A DNA stretch of 64,000 bases from an uncultured delta proteobacterium (GCA_963727445.1 CAVSGI010000009.1:800001-864000); one strand, 5' to 3'. Positions 37,673 through 55,102 are shown, counted from the first letter of the stretch. Made by a program: numbers and translations. The notes: generated from the sequence alone by a model not told the origin.

Positions 37673-40575
37673 TCCGCTTCGCTGCGCCCTGGCTGCTGCT
37701 CGTCGGCCTGCCCGCCATCGCGCTGCTGGCGCTTCGCCTCCGGCGTCTGCCTTCGGGCCATGCCGGCCGGCGTCGCGTCGCAATTCAGGCGAGCATGCTC
37801 CTGGCCCTCGTCGCCGCCACGCTCGCCCTCGGCGGGATGGAGCTGGGCGCCGAGATCGATCGTCTCGCCGTGGTCTTCGCCCTCGACCGAAGTCGCAGCG
37901 TCGAGCGCTCGGGTCAGGCCGGCGCGACGCGCGCGATGGAGGAGATCCGGGGCGCGGTCGACACGATGGAGACCGACGACAAGGCCGGCCTCGTCGTCTT
38001 CGGTGCCGAGGCCGCGACCGAGGTGGTTCCCTCGCCACATCCGCCCATCGGCACGGCGCGCGCCAGCGTTCCGCGCGACGCGACAAACATCGGCAGCGCG
38101 ATCCGGCGGGCCCTCGCCGACCTGCCCGCCGAGCACGCGGGCCGCATCGTCGTCGTCTCGGACGGCGTCGAGACCGACGGGGACGCCCTCGCCGCGGCCG
38201 CCAGCGCCGCGAGCCGCGGCGTGGTGATCGACGTCGTCCCCATCGAGCGGGAGCCGAGCCCGGAGATCGCCGTCGAGCGCGTGCGCATTCCCGAGACCGC
38301 GAACCCGGGAGAGCCCGTGGAGCTGCGCATCGTCACGCGTTCGACCGAAGCGAGCGACGTGCGGGTGCGGGTCACGCGCAACGGCGAGGTCATCGCCGAG
38401 GCCGAGACCGAGGTGGCCGCCGGCGACGACGTGCTGGTGATGCGCGACGTCGCGCCGGAGGCGGGCGTGCACCGCTACGACGTGCTGGTGGAGCCGGTGG
38501 GCTCGGGCGACGCGTCGCCGGAGAACAACGAGGGCGGCGCCTTTCTGCGCGTCAGCGGCGAGTCACGCGTCCTGGTCCTCGCGGCGGAGCCGGACCAGGC
38601 GACGGCGCTCGCCGACGCCATTCGGCGCGGCGGCAGCGAGGTGGAGGTCTTCGGCCCATCGCGTGTTCCACCCGACCTCGCCACCCTCGCCAGCTACGAC
38701 CTCCTGATCCTCTCGGACCTTCCGTCGCGCGCGCTCAGCGAGGATCAGCTGCAGATGATCCAGAGCTACGTCCGCGACCTCGGCGGAGGCCTCTTGATGC
38801 TCGGAACGCGCGACGCCTTCGGCCTCGGAGGATACGCGTACACGCCGGTGGAGGAGGCCCTGCCGGCGACCTTCGACCTCCGCCAACGTCGCGACCGCGC
38901 CTCGCTGGCGATGATCATCGCCATCGACAACTCGGGCTCGATGGGGATGGAGATCGCGCCCGGGCGATCGAAGCTCGACGTAGCGAACGAGGCCGCGGGG
39001 CGATCGGCGCGCCTGCTCTCGCCCTTCGATCGCGTCGGCGTGATGCACGTCGACACCGAGGTGCACTGGACGCTGAGGATGACTGGCGTCGACGACCCGG
39101 AGCAGGTGGCCGCGGCCATCCGCCGCGCACAGCCGGGCGGCGGCGGGATCGACGTGGACGTCGCCCTGCTGGAGAGCTACCGGACGCTCCGCGCCGAGCA
39201 GACGCAGCTCAAGCACGTCCTGCTCTTCAGCGACGGCGAGGACTCGCAAAACCTCCCGGGCATGCGCCGCGTGGTGCAAGAGGCCATCGACGATCGCATC
39301 ACCACCTCGATCGTCTCGATGGGCAACGGCGTCTACACCCCCGAGCTCGAGGCGCTCTCGCGCATCGGGCAGGGGCGCTTCTACATCGTCGAAAACCTCA
39401 CCGAGCTTCCGCGCATCTTCACCCAGGAGACGATCGAGGCGAGCCGGTCGGCGATCGTCGAGGAGCCCTTCGCCCCCAGCCTCGGAGTCCCAAGCGCCAC
39501 CACGCGCGGCATCGACTTCGGGACGGCACCGGAGCTCGGCGGCTACGTGGTGTTGAACGCACGGCCGGCGGGCTCGGTGCTCCTCGGCGCCAAGGACGAC
39601 GATCCTCTCCTCGTCACCTGGCAGTATGGCATCGGTCGGAGCGCCGTCTTCGCGGCGGACGGTGGAGCGCTCTTCACCCGTTCGTGGCTGGCGTGGCCCG
39701 GCTACGCGGCGCTCTTCGGTCAGCTCGCGCGCGATCTCGCCCGCGCGCCCGAGCGCCGGGACGCGCGGATCGGCGTTCGCCTCGAAGGCGGCGTCGGACG
39801 GGTGGTGGTCGAGGCGGTGGACGCCGACGGCCACTACCGAAACTACCTCGACCTCTCGGCCACCGTGGCCGCGCGCGGCGGCCGTCGTCTGGACGTCGAG
39901 CTCACCCAGAGTGGCGCCGGGCGCTACGAGGGGACCTTCGACGCCAGCACGCCCGGGCCCTACCTGGTCACGGTTCGCGAGGGCGACGAGGGGCTCGTGG
40001 GCAGCGCGGGTCTCGTGCGGCCGACGGGCGACGAGCTGCGCGGCGAAGGCACCGACCACGCGAAGCTCGCGCAGATCGCGGCGCTCACCGGCGGGCAGGT
40101 GCGCACCGACCTGCGCGCGGTTTTCACCGACCGCCCGCCGCGCACCTACGCGTATCGGCCACTGTGGCCGCCGCTCCTGATCCTGGCGATGTGCCTGATG
40201 CTCCTCTCGGTGGCGCTGCGCCGCTTGGTGCTCCCGATGGAGGCGATCCGGCGCGCGATCCCAGCGCCCATCCGTCGTCTCTTTCGCGTGCGTCCGCCGC
40301 GGCGGCCTGCGCCCAGCACGCCCACGGCGACCCTCGACGCCCTCGCGCGCGCGAAAGCCGAAGGCCGCGACGAGCGCGCGCAACGAGCGGAGGTCGCACC
40401 CGAGGTCGCGGCTGCGCGTGCGGCGGATCCGTCCGAGGAGAAGCCTGCGCCTTCTTCCCGCACGGCGACGAAGCCTGCGGAACCCGAAACCGGCGAGACC
40501 ACCGCAGCGCCGGAAAATGCCCAACCCGGCTCACTCGCCGAGACGCTCCTGGCCCGGAAGAAGAAGCGGCGCTGA
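37669..40575 (+). CDS. Double-VWA + GATase1-like domain membrane protein
   Basis: MIDAS motifs DRSRSV and DNSGSM, SDG, PENN, YVRDLGGGLLMLG..FGLGGY, WQYGIGRS; C-terminal TM. Confidence 0.87.
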   Translation: MIRFAAPWLLLVGLPAIALLALRLRRLPSGHAGRRRVAIQASMLLALVAATLALGGMELGAEIDRLAVVFALDRSRSVERSGQAGATRAMEEIRGAVDTMETDDKAGLVVFGAEAATEVVPSPHPPIGTARASVPRDATNIGSAIRRALADLPAEHAGRIVVVSDGVETDGDALAAAASAASRGVVIDVVPIEREPSPEIAVERVRIPETANPGEPVELRIVTRSTEASDVRVRVTRNGEVIAEAETEVAAGDDVLVMRDVAPEAGVHRYDVLVEPVGSGDASPENNEGGAFLRVSGESRVLVLAAEPDQATALADAIRRGGSEVEVFGPSRVPPDLATLASYDLLILSDLPSRALSEDQLQMIQSYVRDLGGGLLMLGTRDAFGLGGYAYTPVEEALPATFDLRQRRDRASLAMIIAIDNSGSMGMEIAPGRSKLDVANEAAGRSARLLSPFDRVGVMHVDTEVHWTLRMTGVDDPEQVAAAIRRAQPGGGGIDVDVALLESYRTLRAEQTQLKHVLLFSDGEDSQNLPGMRRVVQEAIDDRITTSIVSMGNGVYTPELEALSRIGQGRFYIVENLTELPRIFTQETIEASRSAIVEEPFAPSLGVPSATTRGIDFGTAPELGGYVVLNARPAGSVLLGAKDDDPLLVTWQYGIGRSAVFAADGGALFTRSWLAWPGYAALFGQLARDLARAPERRDARIGVRLEGGVGRVVVEAVDADGHYRNYLDLSATVAARGGRRLDVELTQSGAGRYEGTFDASTPGPYLVTVREGDEGLVGSAGLVRPTGDELRGEGTDHAKLAQIAALTGGQVRTDLRAVFTDRPPRTYAYRPLWPPLLILAMCLMLLSVALRRLVLPMEAIRRAIPAPIRRLFRVRPPRRPAPSTPTATLDALARAKAEGRDERAQRAEVAPEVAAARAADPSEEKPAPSSRTATKPAEPETGETTAAPENAQPGSLAETLLARKKKRR

Positions 40576-43551: not shown

Positions 43552-44256
43552 TCACGGCACAGAACGAGAGACGTCTACCCGCAGATGTGAGGCCAGCTCG
43601 TCTCCGAGGCGCACCCGGTAGGCCGCCGACTGGGCGACGTCGGGATCGAGGTCCGCCATCCATCCGGCCACGTCGAGGCTCAGCGAAACGGCGAAGACGT
43701 CCTCTGCGGCGTCCAGGACTATGGGTGGATCGAGGGCGAGGCTCACGTCTCGGGTCGCTGAGCTGCTCAGCACAAAGCGCCTGTCCTCGCCATCGTCGAG
43801 GTACGTGACCTCGACGAGAAGAGCGAGCCCGTCCATGGGGTCGAGGCGCGGGTCGACCGCCCCGTTTTCATTGGGCGCGACGGTGACGCGCAAGCCGCAG
43901 TAGCTCGTCGCCGCTGGAGAGAGCAAGGCGAGGGGCACCGGCCCCGGCGCGAGCGCGTCGATGCGCTCGCTGCCGGTCCATGCGCGAGGCGTCGCGCCGT
44001 CATGCGCGCGCGCTGTTGAAGGCCCCAGCCATGAGACCGCGCTGGCGACAGTGCTCTCGCAGGGCAGGAGCTCGAGCTCCGTGAGGTTGATCTTCGCGCT
44101 CGCGGCACGTGGCGCGGTGCTCCCGGCGGCCACGGAGGAGGGAGAGCCGTCGAAGAAGAGCTCCACCAGCACGCCGGGCGATTCGCTGACGCAGCGCACG
44201 CTCACCGAGCAGACGAGGAGCAGGGCGCTGAGCCCGACCGACCGACGGCTAAACAT
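43552..44256 (-). CDS. Hypothetical exported protein, possibly MbnP-like fold
   Basis: Signal/lipobox-like N-terminus; ELELLPC..STARAH..SYCGLRVTVAP; start overlaps the upstream stop. Confidence 0.6.
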   Translation of the reverse strand: MFSRRSVGLSALLLVCSVSVRCVSESPGVLVELFFDGSPSSVAAGSTAPRAASAKINLTELELLPCESTVASAVSWLGPSTARAHDGATPRAWTGSERIDALAPGPVPLALLSPAATSYCGLRVTVAPNENGAVDPRLDPMDGLALLVEVTYLDDGEDRRFVLSSSATRDVSLALDPPIVLDAAEDVFAVSLSLDVAGWMADLDPDVAQSAAYRVRLGDELASHLRVDVSRSVP

Positions 44257-45139
44257 CGATGGCTACCCCCGCGAGCGCCTGGACTCGCTCGCTCTGCTGG
44301 CCGCGGAGCGCGTCGATGACGGGCACCGTCACCGTCAGCCACAGAACGACGTCTTCGGCGGGGCTCGCGATCAGGCCGCCGCTCAGATACCCCACCACGC
44401 CACCGCTGTTCGGATCGTCGACGCCGGCGAGGGTGGTGCCCTCTTCGAAGCGAGCGCCCGCGCCCAGCCGGAACCCGAGGAACGTCCAGGGCTGGAGCTG
44501 CCCCACCAAGGTACTGCGCAGGTGCATCCCGACCTGGCTGTCGCCGCTCCCGCGGGTCGGCACGAAGACGAGCACCGAGCCGTGGAGGGACAGCGCGCCT
44601 TCGAAGAGGCTGCCCCCGACCGCGAAGGACGGATCCCAGGATCCCGTGCCGAGCTGGCGCTCGAGTGGAAGGGGGCCCGCGCCGCTCATCCGGATCGGCG
44701 CGGTGGGCAGCTCGAGGCCGACGTGGGCCCACACGAGCCGCGACGGAGCCCAGGTGCGATCGCGATAGAGGACGAAGCGCGCGCGGAGCGTGGTGTCGCC
44801 TGGACCGACCACGGATTCCCTCGAGAGGTTGGGTTGCGTCGTCTGTCTGAGGACGATCGGGACGCGAAGCCCGAGCGTCAGCCAGGGCACCGGCGCGTGG
44901 CTCAGAGCCACAGTGAGCCGTTCCTCGCGCGAGACGACCTCGTCCGCTCCGGGAGTGCCCGAGTGCGCTTCCAGGTGGCGGACCTGGGCCGACACGCGGG
45001 TCCGTCCGGCGTAGGGCTGCTCTACGCCCATCACGTTCAGCGTCGGATCGCCGACCGCACACGTCGCGCACGCAGCCGCACGCCGCGCCGTCAGGACGAC
45101 AGCGATGAAGACCAGGCCGGAGATGGCGAGCCTTCGCAT
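44249..45139 (-). CDS. Putative outer-membrane beta-barrel 'transporter' with N-terminal CxxC
   Basis: Signal peptide then ACATCAVGD; GPGD, LELPTA, QLGTGSWD; alternating beta-strand pattern to the C-terminus. Confidence 0.65.
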   Translation of the reverse strand: MRRLAISGLVFIAVVLTARRAAACATCAVGDPTLNVMGVEQPYAGRTRVSAQVRHLEAHSGTPGADEVVSREERLTVALSHAPVPWLTLGLRVPIVLRQTTQPNLSRESVVGPGDTTLRARFVLYRDRTWAPSRLVWAHVGLELPTAPIRMSGAGPLPLERQLGTGSWDPSFAVGGSLFEGALSLHGSVLVFVPTRGSGDSQVGMHLRSTLVGQLQPWTFLGFRLGAGARFEEGTTLAGVDDPNSGGVVGYLSGGLIASPAEDVVLWLTVTVPVIDALRGQQSERVQALAGVAIDV

Positions 45140-45146
45140 CGGCCGA

Positions 45147-45208
45147 GGCTTAGTGGGACGTGCGAGAGCTGTACATGAGGCAAATCGTCGCTGCGACGAT
45201 ATGCCGCA
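45147..45208 (-). promoter_or_regulatory. Promoter with two tandem RegA/RegR-type boxes
   Basis: Plus strand TGAGGC-AAATC-GTCGC (45176-45191) and TGCGAC-GATAT-GCCGCA (45192-45208; reverse complement GCGGC-N5-GTCGC); -10-like TAAGCC at 45152-45147. Confidence 0.7.
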
Positions 45209-45220
45209 CCTGTCGAGAGG

Positions 45221-46468
45221 CTACGGGGCGGCTTCGAAGGGATCGGAGAAGCGCGGATCGGTCACGAACTCGTCGTCCGTGAGGCTGCGCAGGAACGCGA
45301 GCATGTCGGCCTTCTCGTCGTCGGCCATCACGAAGCCGTGGACGAAGATGCTCTTGTTCGGGTTGTCGCGTCCGTCCCCGACGTAGGGGCCATCCGTCAC
45401 GTTGCGGCCGCCGGCGGCGTAGGTGTCGAGCACCTCTTCGAGCGTGGCGATGCTCCCGTCGTGCATGTAGGGCGCGGTGAGCGCGATGTTGCGCAAGGTC
45501 GGAGGCTTGAACCGACCCATGTCCGCCGGATCGCCGGTCGACTCGTAGAGGCCGGTGTTCTCGGTGGGATAGGCGCCACGCCCATCGACGTTGTAGAGGC
45601 CCGTGTTGAAGAACACCGCCTCGTCGAAGACGATGCCCTCGTGGTCGACGGAGGACGAGAAGTTGAACGATCCGTGGCAGTGGAAGCAGTCGAAGGTCTC
45701 GCCGAAGAAGAGCTCGGCGCCGCGCAGGGCCGCTTCGCTCATCGCCGAAGTCTCACCGTCGCGCGTATAGCGATCGTAGGCGGAGTTGCCGCTGATCAGC
45801 GTGCGCTCGAAGGCGCCGATGGCGCGCACCACGTTGGCCACGGTGAAGGGATCCGCGTCGTCTGGGAACGCACGCGGGAAGAGGTCCTGGTACATGGTCT
45901 CGGCGCGCAGGCGCTCGAGCAGCAGGTCTTCCTTCCCCGCCAGGCCGAGCTCGATGATCGGCGATTCTCCGAACATCGGCAGGAGCGCCTGGTCCTCGAG
46001 CGTCCGCACCGTCGGATTCGCCCAGGTGAGCGTCGCCTGGTACGCGACGTTCGTCAGCGACATCGAGCTCCGCGGGTGAGTCATCCCCGTCGAGCCCAGG
46101 GCATGCGCCAGCCCGTCGGTGAACGCTTTGTCCTGCTGGTGGCACGAGGCGCACGAGTAGGTCTGGTTGTCCGAGAGCCGGGTGTCGTAGAAGAGGTAGC
46201 GGCCGAGCTCGACCTTCACGGCGCTCATGGGGTTGTCTTCCGGCACACGGGGAACGGGAAAGTCCGGCGGGAGGTCCCAGGTCCACTCCTCCATCCCGCC
46301 GTCACCGCCGCCGTCAGCGTCGCCCGCGTCGCCCGCGTCCCCCGCGTCGGCCATCCCATCAGGCGTGGCATCGGTGGTCGCGTCGGGCCCCATGGGCCCG
46401 TCGTCCCCGCATCCCGCGAAGAGCGAGGTGACGAGGGCGATGAACGCGAGTGCCACGGGGTGAGTCAC
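45221..46468 (-). CDS. mbnH: MbnH-family di-heme enzyme (bCcP/MauG superfamily) lipoprotein
   Basis: Lipobox AGC-GDD; PEDNPMS..KVELGRYLFYD, CASCH and CFHCH, FKPPTLRNIALTAPYMHDGS, DPRFSDPF; directly downstream of mbnP. Confidence 0.9.
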   Translation of the reverse strand: MTHPVALAFIALVTSLFAGCGDDGPMGPDATTDATPDGMADAGDAGDAGDADGGGDGGMEEWTWDLPPDFPVPRVPEDNPMSAVKVELGRYLFYDTRLSDNQTYSCASCHQQDKAFTDGLAHALGSTGMTHPRSSMSLTNVAYQATLTWANPTVRTLEDQALLPMFGESPIIELGLAGKEDLLLERLRAETMYQDLFPRAFPDDADPFTVANVVRAIGAFERTLISGNSAYDRYTRDGETSAMSEAALRGAELFFGETFDCFHCHGSFNFSSSVDHEGIVFDEAVFFNTGLYNVDGRGAYPTENTGLYESTGDPADMGRFKPPTLRNIALTAPYMHDGSIATLEEVLDTYAAGGRNVTDGPYVGDGRDNPNKSIFVHGFVMADDEKADMLAFLRSLTDDEFVTDPRFSDPFEAAP

Positions 46469-46482
46469 GGACGATGAGGGGT

Positions 46483-47472
46483 CTACTCGAGGTGGAAGAA
46501 AGACTGCGCCGTCGAACCGGCGACGCCCGTCGCGTAGTCGAGGCCTAGCTTGGGAAAGACCGGAAGGCAATCGGTCTCGTCCGTGGGGAAGGACTGGCAG
46601 CCCGGAGGCGTGCCCATGGTGTTGGCGGTGAGGTCCGCGTCGGACACCAGCTCGGCGAGGTCCGCCACGATCACGCTGGTGTCGATGTCGAAGCCGTCGA
46701 GACTGACCTCCATGCGGTTCGGCCGCATGCACTCGGCGGTCGGAGGCTCGGTGGGCGCGCCGCTGGTGCACATGGTGCTGCCCAGGTGCATGTTGTAGCC
46801 GCCGCTGCCCACGACGAGATCGATGCGAAGAAATTTGTATCCGCCCTGCCAGTTCCAGAACATCGACGTGATGTTGAGCGGGGTCTCGGCGGTCGCGACG
46901 TCGACGTGGTTCAGCTCGAAGGGAACACCGACGACGAAACGAACGCCGGTGTACTCGCCCGGAGCGACGGTGCCGACGACCTCGCTGTTCAACGCGGAGT
47001 TGCCCGACATACACGCCGAGGTGCCGTCTTCGAAGTCGAGGAGCGACACGTCCGCGCTCTGGAACATACCGTCAGGCGTGAGCGCGACGGGAACCTCGTC
47101 GTCCGTGCTGGTCACGAGCCGCACGTCGGAGACGTAGAAGCGGAAGTCCCCGCCGGTGGCTTCCGCCGAGGTCGTGCCGAGCCCGCTGTAGGTCGTTCCG
47201 CAGCCGAAGTCCTCGCTTCCCACCCTCGCCGCGAACTGGAGCGTGACCGGCATGTCGGTGGAGGTGTCGGCTGCGGAGTCCGTGGCGCTGTCCATCGTGC
47301 CGCTGTCGCCCGTGCTGGTATCGCCGCTGCTGGAATCAGCGGGACCGGTGTCGGCGGCGCTGTCCATCACACCGCTATCGGTCGCGCCGCCATCCGTTGC
47401 GCCGTCGTCGCCACACGCGGTGGTGAAGACGAGAAGGAGCCCTGTCACCGAAGCCAAGCTTGTCGATCTCAT
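46483..47472 (-). CDS. mbnP: MbnP-family copper-binding lipoprotein
   Basis: Lipobox TAC-GDD; DFRFYVSDV, LLDFEDGT, GVPFELNH, MFWNWQGGYKF (WxW), HLGSTMC, PNR, GCQS; GGAGAG SD. Confidence 0.9.
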   Translation of the reverse strand: MRSTSLASVTGLLLVFTTACGDDGATDGGATDSGVMDSAADTGPADSSSGDTSTGDSGTMDSATDSAADTSTDMPVTLQFAARVGSEDFGCGTTYSGLGTTSAEATGGDFRFYVSDVRLVTSTDDEVPVALTPDGMFQSADVSLLDFEDGTSACMSGNSALNSEVVGTVAPGEYTGVRFVVGVPFELNHVDVATAETPLNITSMFWNWQGGYKFLRIDLVVGSGGYNMHLGSTMCTSGAPTEPPTAECMRPNRMEVSLDGFDIDTSVIVADLAELVSDADLTANTMGTPPGCQSFPTDETDCLPVFPKLGLDYATGVAGSTAQSFFHLE

Positions 47473-47500
47473 GTCTCTCTCCGTTTCCCCGAACGAGCGA

Positions 47501-47546
47501 ATGCTAGTGCGAAACAGGCGGCCCGCGCCTGTGGTCAATTGTCGCA
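47501..47546 (-). promoter_or_regulatory. mbnP promoter with RegA/RegR-type box
   Basis: Plus strand TGTGGT-CAATT-GTCGCA (47530-47546); -10 TAGCAT at 47506-47501; 23-nt gap, the same as at the 45.15 kb promoter. Confidence 0.65.
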
Positions 47547-47575
47547 CCGAATCGAGGTCGGGCTCCAGCTGTCCC

Positions 47576-48124
47576 TCATCGCGGGGTGGGATGCTTCGCG
47601 AGCTTTCGCTGGAGCGAGCGGCGGTGGATGCCGAGGAGACGCGCCGCATGAGTGATGTTTCCATCGCATTCAGCGAGAACGCGGTTGATGTGCTCCCATT
47701 CGACGCGCGCCAGCGTCGGGACGCTCTCGGGACTCCGGGATTCTGCCGCGCCTTCGCCGTCTGCGCCCAGCTCGAACGCCGCGAGGATCTCCTCCACCGT
47801 GGCTGGCTTCGTCAGATAGTGGACCGCGCCGCGCCTGACGGCGTCGAGAGCCGTGGCGATCGAACCGAACCCGGTGAGGACCACCGTACGGGTGGTCGCG
47901 TCGATGGCGGCGAAATCCGCGACCACGTCGAGACCTGAGCCGCCCGGCATGCGCAGATCGACCAGGGCGAGCTCGGGGCTGTCCTGCTCGGCCGACATGC
48001 GCGCCTCTTCGCGACTGGCGGCGAGCCGCACGTCGTAGCCACGATCCTCCAGCGCGCGACCGAGGCGCGACCGAAACGTGCTGTCGTCGTCGACGATCAG
48101 GATGCTCGGATTCGCGTCGTTCAT
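47576..48124 (-). CDS. regA: RegA/PrrA/ActR family response regulator
   Basis: ILIVDDD, VDLRM, LTGFGSIATA, YLTKP, VEWEHINRVL..GNITHAARLLGIHRRSLQRKL. Confidence 0.93.
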   Translation of the reverse strand: MNDANPSILIVDDDSTFRSRLGRALEDRGYDVRLAASREEARMSAEQDSPELALVDLRMPGGSGLDVVADFAAIDATTRTVVLTGFGSIATALDAVRRGAVHYLTKPATVEEILAAFELGADGEGAAESRSPESVPTLARVEWEHINRVLAECDGNITHAARLLGIHRRSLQRKLAKHPTPR

Positions 48125-49410
48125 CGCGGGATCTCCACGCTCGCCGTGGTTCCTCGGCCCGGCCCCGAGGTCAAGTCGAATCGGCCACCGAGCTCCTCGG
48201 TCACGATGCACGCCAGAAAGAGGCCGAGCCCCATTCCTTGACCTTCCGGTTTCGTCGAGAAGAAAGGCTCGAGCGCCCGTTCGCGGATCTCAGCGGTCAT
48301 TCCCGACCCCTGGTCGCGTACGGTGAAGAGCACGGCGTCCTCCGTGGCCTCGACTTCCAGGCGGACGCGTTCCTCCGCCCCTGACGCCTCGAACGCGTTG
48401 TCGACGAGGTTGCCGAGGGCCGAGATGAACGCTCGCTTGGGAACGAAAAGCTCCGGCAGCCCCGGGGAGACGCGTAGCGCGAGCCGCTGCTGCTGGTCGT
48501 CGGGGAGGCGCGCCCTGACCTCATCGACGAGCACCTGCGCGTCGACCGGCACCGGTGCCTCACCTCGCCCTTCGCCTCTCTTTCGGCCGAGTTGGTCGAG
48601 TATCGCGCGGCACCGCTCCACCTCGCCGAGGATCAGCTTCGCGTCGGAGGCGATCTCGCCACCCTCTGTGAGCTCCTCTGCGCGCCGCTGGAGCTCGCCC
48701 GCCACGATCGTGATCGTGTTCAGGGGTGTGGACATCTCGTGCGCGGCGCCGGCGGCGAGGGTCGTCAACGACGCGAGGCGCTCGCTGCGTGTCGCGCGGG
48801 CTCGGGCCTCGGCGAGCTCGCGGTCGCGGCTACCCAATGCAGCCGTCAGGCGTGTGCCCAGGTACGCCACGATGCCGGCGGTGATCGCAAAGGCGAGGAG
48901 CATTCCGTAGAGGTGCGTCGCGTAACCGTTCGAGGTGCCGTGGTGGCTCGTGTGATGCACGTGCCCGCCCATGGCGCTCGGCTCGGCGGGGGTGATCACG
49001 AAGAGCAGCCCGAAACACAGCACCGTCACCGCTGCCAGGCTCCACGCCCATCGGTTGCCGAGGACCACCGATGCCAGCGCGACGTAGACGAGGAACAGGA
49101 CGGTGAACGGGTTCTCTGGACCTCCGGAGAGCGCAAGACTGGCGGAGAGCGCCAAGGTGTCCACCAGGAGCAGGGCTCCGAGCCCCCGCGCTTCGCCTCT
49201 CAGGCGACGCCGCGCGACGACGAACACGAAGTTGGTCGCGACGACGTAGCCCGCGAACGCGAGCATGGGTACGATCTTCAGCCCTGGATCGATCAACAGC
49301 GTCACCGCAGCGATGAGGACGGCTCCGCCGATACCGAGTGCCCAACGCGCACGGACGAACCAGTCGAGGGCGATCGCTTCGGGGCTCGTCACGCGGGGAG
49401 TGTGGTCCAA
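48121..49410 (-). CDS. regB: RegB/PrrB family sensor histidine kinase with His-rich loop
   Basis: SGGPENPF, AAGAAHEMSTPL H-box, ERCR redox Cys, NAFEAS, DQGSGM, PFFSTK, GMGLGL; loop MGGHVHHTSHHG. Confidence 0.9.
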   Translation of the reverse strand: MDHTPRVTSPEAIALDWFVRARWALGIGGAVLIAAVTLLIDPGLKIVPMLAFAGYVVATNFVFVVARRRLRGEARGLGALLLVDTLALSASLALSGGPENPFTVLFLVYVALASVVLGNRWAWSLAAVTVLCFGLLFVITPAEPSAMGGHVHHTSHHGTSNGYATHLYGMLLAFAITAGIVAYLGTRLTAALGSRDRELAEARARATRSERLASLTTLAAGAAHEMSTPLNTITIVAGELQRRAEELTEGGEIASDAKLILGEVERCRAILDQLGRKRGEGRGEAPVPVDAQVLVDEVRARLPDDQQQRLALRVSPGLPELFVPKRAFISALGNLVDNAFEASGAEERVRLEVEATEDAVLFTVRDQGSGMTAEIRERALEPFFSTKPEGQGMGLGLFLACIVTEELGGRFDLTSGPGRGTTASVEIPR

Positions 49411-50662: not shown

Positions 50663-51160
50663 ATGGCATCGGAAGAAACAACCGTAGCGGCGGACAAGGT
50701 CGTCACCATCCACTACACGTTGACCTCGGAGGAGGGGGAGGTGATCGACAAGTCGGGCTCCGATCCTCTCGAGTACCTGCACGGTCATCAAAACATCGTC
50801 CCCGGGCTCGAACGGCAGATCGCCGGCAAGAGCATGGGGGACAAGTTCCGCGCCGTGGTCGAGGCGGCGGAAGGCTATGGGGAACGGATGCCCGATGCGC
50901 GGCAGGAGATCCCCCGGAGCGCGTTTCCCGCGGACGCGCCGCTGCGCGAAGGGATCCAGCTGGCGGCCGAAGGACCCGACGGCCAGCTGATCGAGCTCTG
51001 GGTCGTCGAGGTCGGCGAGCAAGCCGTCGTCGTCGATCTGAACCACCCGCTCGCCGGCCAGAAGCTCACCTTCGACATCGAGGTCGTCTCGGTTCGAGAC
51101 GCCACCGATGAGGAGCGCTCCCACGGCCACGCCCACGGCGACGGCCACCACCACCACTGA
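50663..51160 (+). CDS. slyD: FKBP-type peptidyl-prolyl isomerase / metallochaperone SlyD
   Basis: VTIHYTL, YLHGHQNIVPGLE, DLNHPLAG, His tail HGHAHGDGHHHH. Confidence 0.93.
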   Translation: MASEETTVAADKVVTIHYTLTSEEGEVIDKSGSDPLEYLHGHQNIVPGLERQIAGKSMGDKFRAVVEAAEGYGERMPDARQEIPRSAFPADAPLREGIQLAAEGPDGQLIELWVVEVGEQAVVVDLNHPLAGQKLTFDIEVVSVRDATDEERSHGHAHGDGHHHH

Positions 51161-54280: not shown

Positions 54281-55102
54281 ATGAACCGAGCATTCGCTCT
54301 CGCGCTGCTCGTCGTCTCGATGCTCGCGCCCACCGTCGCGTCTGCACACTTCAAGCTGGTCGCACCCGCCTGCTACTCGGAGCAGGACGCGCTCGGCACA
54401 CCTCTGAAGAGCGCACCCTGTGGCCAGGCCGATCCCGGCAATCCGGTGGTCGAGACCGGTGACGTGACGATGCTGGTTCAGGGCGGGATGCTCACAGTCA
54501 CCATCGAAGAGACCATCACCCATCCCGGTCACTACCGGATCTCCATCGCCCCCGACATGGCGTCGCTCCCCGACAATCCTCCGGTCACGCCGGGCTCGAC
54601 CGCTTGCGGCTCGACGGTGATCGATCCCGACCCGAGCCTTCCGGTGCTCGCGGACGGCGTCTTCATGCACACCATGTCCTTCAGCGGACCGCAAACCATC
54701 GAAATCCCGCTCCCCCCGGACTTCACCTGCGACAACTGCGTGGTGCAGGTGGCCGAGTTCATGTCCAACCACGGGCTCAACGATCCTGGCGGCTGCTTCT
54801 ATCATCACTGCGCGAACGTGACGGTCACGCCCGCTGCTGGCGACGCCGGCACCCCGGACGGCGGCGGCATGTCCGATGGCGGCGGTATGAGCGACGGAGG
54901 CGGGACGCCGGACGGCAGCACGGCGGACGGCAGCACGGTCCCCGACGGATCGGCCATGTCCGACGGCTCCACCACCATGACCAGCGACTCGGGATGCGGA
55001 TGCCGGGTCGGCGCTCCCGCGCGCCGCGCTCACGGATTCGCCTTCGGCGCGTTCCTGCTCGCGCTGGCGCTCGGCCGCGCCCTCGTCAGACGGCGGGGCT
55101 GA
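54281..55102 (+). CDS. SCE4755-like polysaccharide monooxygenase-like protein with MYXO-CTERM-type anchor
   Basis: Signal ASA|H giving an N-terminal His; PCG, ETITHPGHYRI, CDNC..Q, YHHCA; DGG linker; SGCGCRVG plus TM and RRRG. Confidence 0.8.
   Translation: MNRAFALALLVVSMLAPTVASAHFKLVAPACYSEQDALGTPLKSAPCGQADPGNPVVETGDVTMLVQGGMLTVTIEETITHPGHYRISIAPDMASLPDNPPVTPGSTACGSTVIDPDPSLPVLADGVFMHTMSFSGPQTIEIPLPPDFTCDNCVVQVAEFMSNHGLNDPGGCFYHHCANVTVTPAAGDAGTPDGGGMSDGGGMSDGGGTPDGSTADGSTVPDGSAMSDGSTTMTSDSGCGCRVGAPARRAHGFAFGAFLLALALGRALVRRRG

Follow-up and report, generated by a model that had tools for sequence, protein, structure and literature searches.

Copper import in Gram-negative bacteria is, to our knowledge, poorly mapped, and pairs of the copper-binding protein MbnP and the di-heme protein MbnH are widespread outside the methanobactin producers. 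In the methanotroph pair, kynurenine formation depends on MbnH and MbnP binds copper through the kynurenine (PMC11951088), and mbnPH mutants accumulate copper-loaded methanobactin, which points to a role in uptake or release (PMC13729199). The neighbors of mbnPH genes of the Methylosinus trichosporium OB3b type are MbnT with MbnI/MbnR, and the available text of that report mentions neither "two-component" nor "histidine kinase" (PMC3621798). RegB/RegA pairs are known chiefly as global redox switches. Among regulators, the closest described systems are RegB-SenC-RegA and PrrB-PrrC-PrrA of Rhodobacter (also ActSR and RegSR); R. capsulatus RegB takes redox input through a quinone-binding loop, defined as GGXXNPF, and a redox cysteine (PMC3000548), and regA and regB are co-transcribed with the gene of the copper chaperone SenC (PMC9147068). 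Here we describe a 64,000-nucleotide (nt) stretch from an uncultured delta proteobacterium (GCA_963727445.1, CAVSGI010000009.1:800001-864000; hereafter the window), in which a RegB/RegA-type pair is encoded beside an MbnP/MbnH pair and has no senC next to it.

We give about an even chance to the reading that RegB/RegA activates both promoters inside this cluster together with a remote promoter of a YtkA-like lipoprotein gene, and that these form a small regulon for envelope copper supply. A link between RegBA and copper is already known in kind, from the co-transcription of senC, copper binding by RegA, the control of copCAB by RegR, and local pairs at oxidase operons. In a search of literature outside subscription journals, we found no published description of two-component control of MbnP/MbnH or of a myxobacterial RegBA-copper regulon. 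As far as that literature goes, the predicted narrow envelope-copper regulon, with its RegA-type control of MbnPH, appears to be new, as does the putative fixed promoter grammar across loci of Myxococcota, Acidobacteriota, Binatota, and Thermodesulfobacteriota. If the reading is correct, the little-studied MbnP/MbnH-type copper proteins gain a testable role, and RegBA would have a narrow role, switching cofactor supply, in phyla where little is published on it.

The organism is probably a myxobacterium, judging by the labels of homologs. The genome has a GC content of 68.8%, and its assembly is incomplete (completeness 85.6%). The gene order on the minus strand is regB-regA-mbnP-mbnH-CxxC barrel-lipoprotein (Table 1), and this co-oriented six-gene cluster was found where an original prediction, made from the sequence of the window alone, had placed it. 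The three RegA-type boxes that it assigned to two internal gaps were also recovered at their coordinates. The mbnP ATG lies 57 nt after the box of the first promoter, P1. In the second, P2, the two boxes overlap by one base, and the distal box, read on the plus strand, has the top box score in the genome; the barrel ATG lies 36 nt after the proximal box, which predicts a near-leaderless transcript. The proposed spacing of 23 nt between the proximal box and a CAC-TA element holds in both promoters when counted from the end of the 17-mer to the TA; these 23 nt include the CAC, which therefore lies 20 nt from the box.

Table 1. Genes and predicted promoter elements of the cluster, with positions counted from the first nucleotide of the window
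Feature	Position	Strand	Description
regB	48121..49392	-	RegB/PrrB/ActS-type membrane histidine kinase, 423 aa
regA	47576..48124	-	RegA/PrrA/ActR-type response regulator, 182 aa
P1 RegA-type box TGCGACAATTGACCACA	47530..47546	-	23.0 bits, matrix trained without the window
P1 predicted -10 TAGCAT	47501..47506	-	23 nt after box
mbnP	46483..47472	-	MbnP family copper-binding lipoprotein, 329 aa
mbnH	45221..46468	-	MbnH family di-heme MauG-like lipoprotein, 415 aa
P2 distal RegA-type box TGCGGCATATCGTCGCA	45192..45208	-	26.1 bits, read on + strand
P2 proximal RegA-type box AGCGACGATTTGCCTCA	45176..45192	-	14.5 bits
P2 predicted -10 TAAGCC	45147..45152	-	23 nt after proximal box
barrel gene	44249..45139	-	Predicted outer-membrane beta-barrel, 296 aa
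last gene	43552..44256	-	Lipoprotein, unnamed family, 234 aa

The genome of the window alone does not prove these sites, because the consensus is abundant and, at a loose cut-off, the reversed genome used as a control has no fewer sites that combine a box with the TA. The bare pattern GCGRC-N5-GYCGC occurs 1112 times on both strands, and counting it was rejected as uninformative. Box-plus-TA sites above 14 bits numbered 7 in the reversed control and 5 in the real genome; boxes above 22 bits numbered 1 and 4, respectively. A loose pattern applied across 61 relatives gave real counts close to those of the reversed control and was kept only for leads.

We therefore rely on conservation. DNA around regA was collected from 40 genomes of the same order and 80 named genomes of other groups, genes were called with our own script (approximate starts), and the window was left out of de novo motif discovery, in which every spaced dyad of the upstream regions was counted. 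TGCG-N9-CGCA ranked first and was present in 70 of 413 regions at most 2.5 kb from regA compared to 4 of 305 regions more than 5 kb away, the relatives in these and the following motif counts not being independent of each other by kinship. Refinement on 120 sites gave the consensus TGCGACAATTTGCCGCA. The TA follows at an offset of 23 in 38 of 115 sites and of 22 in 12, against a mean of 1.9 and a maximum of 5 for the other offsets, and many of the remaining sites are the same palindrome read toward a divergent gene. Box and spacing are thus conserved at orthologous promoters, which argues that the sites are real and that the spacing is a rule of the family.

GCGRC-N5-GYCGC is the consensus of RegA, PrrA, and RegR, compared here only with R. 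capsulatus sites from chromatin immunoprecipitation (ChIP). Those sites have the same 15-bp form as the refined motif, GCGAC-N5-GYCGC, for example GCGACCGTTCGTCGC at ccoN (PMC5359404). Together, these data support the assignment of the window boxes as predicted RegA-type sites at a conserved, fixed spacing. If the TA occupies position -12/-11, the center of the box would fall near -44, the position of activators that touch RNA polymerase. The start codon lies 34-38 nt after the box in 16 of 52 oriented sites of relatives, and transcripts from these sites, as from P2, would begin on the start codon or directly beside it.

A strict pattern was also run across 121 genomes of the window's phylum, giving 21 matches in 20 genomes, 14 of them within 5 kb of regA. 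The apparent occurrence of mbnP boxes in two genomes without regA (G006 and G050) was rejected when a shorter query found regA and regB in both; the regA searches in the 61 relatives and the 121 genomes therefore miss some copies. In another genome (G041), neither regBA nor a box was found, and in G153, which consists of 780 contigs, a box is present and regBA was not found. A metagenome scan (123 stretches, 80 with DNA) adds nothing to the case, the one match examined being background inside a long open reading frame on the other strand.

Many of the genes behind these sites belong to copper families. mbnP lies inside 13 of 115 regA-centered loci, and where it lies far from regBA, a box above 14 bits was present within 700 nt in 10 of 19 loci (one further locus, lacking upstream DNA, was dropped), with the TA in 7. 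In another 18 genomes, the site was followed by an operon with YtkA (8), a TonB receptor (3), mbnP (2), COX1 (1), HiPIP (1), or unnamed His-/Cys-rich lipoproteins (2), and one match was a coding false positive; a match in G082 was rejected because it lies in metK. In a tally of 106 box-plus-TA sites from the loci gathered before these 18 genomes, which includes training sites and labels set partly by hand, 39 stand before an operon that includes an established copper family (MbnP/H, YtkA, CopC/D, YcnI, NosL, NosZ, Sco, and COX1) and 26 before genes for barrels, unnamed lipoproteins, or TonB receptors. Of seven box-driven receptors scanned, one passes TIGR01778, the model for TonB-copper (OprC-type) receptors, with 689.9 against a cut-off of 472.45, and three more have this model as their best match. 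A regulator site of fixed geometry would thereby group MbnPH, YtkA, YcnI, CopCD, NosL, Sco, an OprC-type receptor, and two unnamed families.

No copper efflux pump (CopA, CusA) or multicopper oxidase was found among the classified box-driven genes, and the CopC, CopD, and YtkA domains of Bacillus subtilis serve copper import and oxidase assembly in copper starvation (PMC13344008). This copper-supply parts list without an efflux pump argues for supply rather than detoxification. That the regulon instead serves copper excess, by periplasmic sequestration, seems to us highly improbable: CopC and CopD are annotated as copper resistance families and Pseudomonas putida requires roxSR for cadmium tolerance (PMC12041740), but the classified targets lack the efflux and oxidase families just named and include an OprC-type import receptor. 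The recurrence of CopC, CopD, YcnI (DUF1775), and YtkA across relatives resembles the B. subtilis ycnKJI/CtaK (YtkA) system (PMC13344008), in which, however, control lies with the cytoplasmic repressor YcnK, whereas here activation by a membrane kinase is predicted and outer-membrane components are included.

The same tally bears on another explanation, in which the genes form a general redox-triggered envelope maturation set for heme, thiol, and metal cofactors, the copper genes being only a part of it and copper status not being its signal. Box-driven genes include NirS, MtrAB, a TorD-molybdenum oxidoreductase, HiPIP, P460, CcmH, redoxins, and small cytochromes c; the CxxC of the barrel could be a disulfide, and the remote C12 locus described below encodes three cytochromes c. 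Most of the non-copper targets, however, come from Thermodesulfobacteriota-like and proteobacterial loci, whereas 11 of the 18 operons sampled from the window's phylum include YtkA, MbnP, or COX1 and one includes HiPIP. No Zn, Ni, or Co transport family was found among the box-driven genes (70+26+66 neighbors, Pfam), and we consider a general maturation set quite unlikely. Seven Thermodesulfobacteriota-like loci have box-plus-TA sites before nosL-like genes and TorD/molybdopterin oxidoreductase operons.

Turning to the reach of the copper-supply regulon in this genome, the original prediction had described a self-contained module with a regulator dedicated to local copper acquisition. If dedicated means an additional regulator copy, this is not so, as the RegA of the window (175.9 bits in the genome search, next match 78) is the only one found. 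Nor is the module self-contained: in the genome scan with the held-out matrix, the top-ranked site is remote (C12:40517), followed by P1, two sites in apparently coding DNA, and P2 in fifth place, and 10 of 19 unlinked mbnP genes in relatives are also boxed. Candidates at C13:276618 (within a gene of the opposite strand) and C9:218792 (at the 3' end of a gene, no TA) were rejected, and C12:244206, which appears coding, was set aside. The remote locus (C12:39495-42907) has one RegA-type box, at 40501-40517, in a divergent promoter. On its minus-strand side, with the TA at the conserved distance, lie a YtkA-like lipoprotein and a monoheme cytochrome c; on the plus-strand side lie a second YtkA lipoprotein, a PSCyt1 cytochrome, and a multiheme cytochrome. 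At one other locus, this gene set adjoins regBA.

No site above 10 bits was found in the scanned regions around three heme-copper oxidase (coxI) loci, cydA, and an ACIII-like cluster, nor at Sco, CcmH, and one TonB receptor of this genome. The predicted regulon therefore comprises about three promoters and would be narrow without being self-contained. What stands of the proposed local copper system is its narrowness and its preference for envelope copper families over oxidases; its locality does not, with the C12 promoter included. RegA could still be a global respiratory regulator whose degenerate oxidase sites escape the matrix, the copper genes merely having the strongest sites. Consistent with this, RegA is present in exactly one copy in 42 of 61 relatives, alphaproteobacterial RegA and PrrA bind many sites with a weak consensus (PMC4263372, PMC5359404), RegR controls copCAB and nos among ~620 genes (PMC4064962), and box-plus-TA sites precede COX1-type genes in G038 and G153. 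The low scores at the oxidase, Sco, and CcmH loci stand against it, and regA, unlike a core regulator, was not found in 58 of the 121 phylum genomes by a search that misses some copies; we regard a global role as very unlikely.

Like their Rhodobacter counterparts, the two regulators keep the GGxxNPF loop, the redox cysteine, the recognition helix, and the Cys156 equivalent. Their best, full-length matches are NF033792 for RegB (197.4 bits) and NF033791 for RegA (176.5 bits), below the cut-offs of 350 and 250; the NF033791 cut-off was passed by none of 61 relatives. The RegB loop reads GGPENPF (residues 90-96), with N and P each in 96 of 97 relatives. The phospho-His is His218, the R. capsulatus Arg31 of transmembrane helix 1 is kept as Arg16, and the equivalent of the redox Cys265 is Cys261 (85 of 97 relatives), where EVERC261RAIL aligns with QSERCRDIL of ActS. 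RegA has a receiver Asp56 and a Fis-type helix-turn-helix with WEHI...HRRxLQR, here HRRSLQR, whose recognition helix is kept in 110-111 of 112 RegAs; its Cys153 corresponds to R. capsulatus Cys156 and is conserved in 95 of 112. As GGxxNPF and the cysteine are kept, the input of RegB may still be redox.

Unlike Rhodobacter RegBA, the window pair belongs to a separate RegB branch with a His-containing loop and an HxxGM motif, falls below both family cut-offs, and has a well-defined consensus whose distance from the -10 element is fixed, with about three predicted promoters, none at oxidase operons. In a quick tree, whose root was not tested and which gives no order of events, these RegBs branch apart from ActS/RegB. 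The periplasmic loop of RegB is His-rich (five His; at least one in 90 of 97 RegBs of the group), and H160-x3-M164 lies at the outer end of transmembrane helix 5, with H160 in 93 and M164 in 92 of 97 relatives. The main rival builds on these residues and holds that the regulon is the same but that periplasmic copper acts on RegB directly, by way of the His-rich loop and H160-x3-M164, which would make the pair a genuine copper-sensing two-component system. The motif is absent from Sinorhizobium meliloti ActS and Azospirillum RegB, a ubiquinone-binding glutamine is lost here, and R. capsulatus RegA binds copper and dimerizes via Cys156 (PMC9147068), the equivalent of the conserved Cys153. On the other hand, HxxGM does not mark the copper regulon, since it also occurs in proteobacterial pairs linked to cydABDC, cyoABCD, and nosZ; GGxxNPF and Cys261 are under strong selection; and the His and Met could equally bind heme or quinone. 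On balance, direct copper sensing seems unlikely. In three betaproteobacterial loci, nosZ follows immediately after an HxxGM-type regBA, and a RegA-type box lies between them.

Several observations weigh against a redox-driven copper-supply regulon. Q38, one of four ubiquinone-binding residues in R. capsulatus RegB (PMC3000548), is replaced by Gly23 in the window RegB, the position being Gln in 68 of 90 relatives. At 9 of the 19 mbnP loci far from regBA, the nearest 700 nt contain no box, and among the 106 sites, 9 head non-copper redox genes (NirS, TorD-molybdenum oxidoreductase, MtrAB, and monoheme cytochromes), 9 head regBA only, and 23 are unclassified. The strict pattern co-occurs with regA in the phylum sample (19 of 63 regA-positive compared to 1 of 58 regA-not-found genomes), but this comparison is confounded because the reversed-pattern control leans the same way (11 of 63 compared to 3 of 58). 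Finally, PrrA ChIP peaks are many and lack a strong consensus (PMC4263372), and therefore oxidase operons may be under control even without a box.

In the mechanism that we propose for the copper-supply regulon, RegB would sense an over-reduced quinone pool through GGxxNPF and Cys261, a state expected if heme-copper oxidases run short of copper or oxygen, so that RegB would read redox state as a proxy for copper shortage. Phosphorylated RegA would then activate from the box near -44, beside RNA polymerase. The genes switched on would serve entry (the CxxC barrel here, replaced in other phyla by a TonB copper receptor), capture (kynurenine MbnP matured by MbnH, and the putative MbnP-fold lipoprotein), and hand-over (YtkA, YcnI, CopCD, NosL, and Sco in relatives). 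Copper delivery would restore oxidase activity and close the loop. A precedent for redox-driven metal uptake is Methylomonas DH-1, where RegBA turns on feo iron uptake upon redox stress (PMC13274454), and proteobacterial RegBA/RoxSR-type pairs at cyoABCD-surf1 and cydABDC likewise have an HxxGM-type RegB in or beside the target operon. In contrast to these pairs and to RegBA-feo, the window targets are envelope copper proteins rather than an oxidase or iron uptake.

MbnP passes TIGR04052 (272.7, cut-off 140) and aligns to the OB3b protein structure 7L6G (E value 2e-36) with His189, Met204, and W206-N-W208 in place, W206 falling in the region of OB3b Trp174, which bears out its predicted identity with a copper-site WxW; its domain has six Cys, and a long Asp/Ser/Thr linker follows the lipobox Cys20. 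MbnH passes TIGR04039 (510.7, cut-off 362.85), has CxxCH at residues 106 and 261, and is encoded next to mbnP. Both thus resemble the M. trichosporium OB3b pair in passing the family cut-offs and, for the copper site, in keeping its His, Met, and WxW. They differ from it in being predicted lipoproteins, RegA-boxed, paired with a small barrel, and without MbnB-type methanobactin genes or a TonB receptor nearby. On a plasmid of Methylosinus sp. C49 (NZ_AP022335.1), an HxxGM-type regBA adjoins mbnABCMF, with a box without TA upstream of regB.

As originally predicted, the window gave no match to MbnB-type PF05114 or to a TonB receptor, nor did it to YtkA or CopC. PF05114 has 7 matches elsewhere in the genome, and a genome search for MbnC, run without a positive control, was negative. 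DUF692/MbnB-type enzyme matches and four further MauG-like genes occur elsewhere (C20:14529, C10:1021763, C12:334012, C20:847069, and C20:6255-7040); a RegA-type box was absent from all three MauG loci that were scanned.

The barrel has AC-x-x-C-x-x-GD right after its predicted signal peptide, and C24 and C27 are kept in at least 90% of 30 homologs. It has no Pfam or NCBIfam match of its own but is similar to PF13557 homologs (E values 1e-6 to 1e-3) and FapF (6.6e-7), suggesting a distant relative of PF13557/FapF channels. In six Binatia-type loci, regBA lies beside another unnamed barrel-like family, with several secreted proteins without Pfam match nearby.

The product of the last gene is one of a large, unnamed family of lipoproteins (1957 representatives), usually encoded beside the barrel. 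The description of it as MbnP-like survives, at best, at the level of fold. Its model, a predicted beta-sandwich (predicted local distance difference test, pLDDT, 87), has 7L6G as best match (Z score 8.2, root-mean-square deviation 4.2, 172 residues aligned), but a fimbrial protein scores within 1 of it (Z score 7.4, 106 aligned), effectively a tie. It has no Pfam or NCBIfam match and no WxW, and the hhalign probability to MbnP is 1.2%; a sequence link to MbnP was rejected, as none was found and an Atlas lead to MbnP stood at 0.85 only. Cys22 and His85 are invariant in the family, and Cys66, Cys120, and an acidic residue at 130 nearly so. Residues 66-91 form a variable amphipathic loop (pLDDT 62-72) with A-x-A-H ending at His85; among 139 homologs, A(-3) is kept in 130, A(-1) in 133, and the His in all. 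This A-x-A-H looks like a signal-peptidase site, that is, the end of a signal peptide inside the protein, and we speculate that internal cleavage of the lipoprotein could expose a His brace. A bolder and rather improbable extension is that the multi-phylum HxxGM RegB branch has been rewired to a copper-status sensor and that uptake is TonB-independent, running from a CxxC-plugged barrel through an internally cut, disulfide-held two-chain lipoprotein with a new N-terminal His brace to kynurenine-MbnP.

Two further regions of the window lie outside the cluster. A SlyD-like FKBP protein with a His-rich tail is encoded at 50663-51160 (plus strand), 1.3 kb upstream of regB on the opposite strand, followed by a Rieske oxygenase gene; the FKBP neighbor was not seen conserved beside regBA. 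At 54281-55102 (plus strand), where no RegA box was found, lies a gene for a secreted protein with a myxobacterial sorting-like tail and no Pfam match. Its predicted mature start is a His (ASA-H) and it has a His/Cys-rich segment, making it a possible His-brace metalloprotein.

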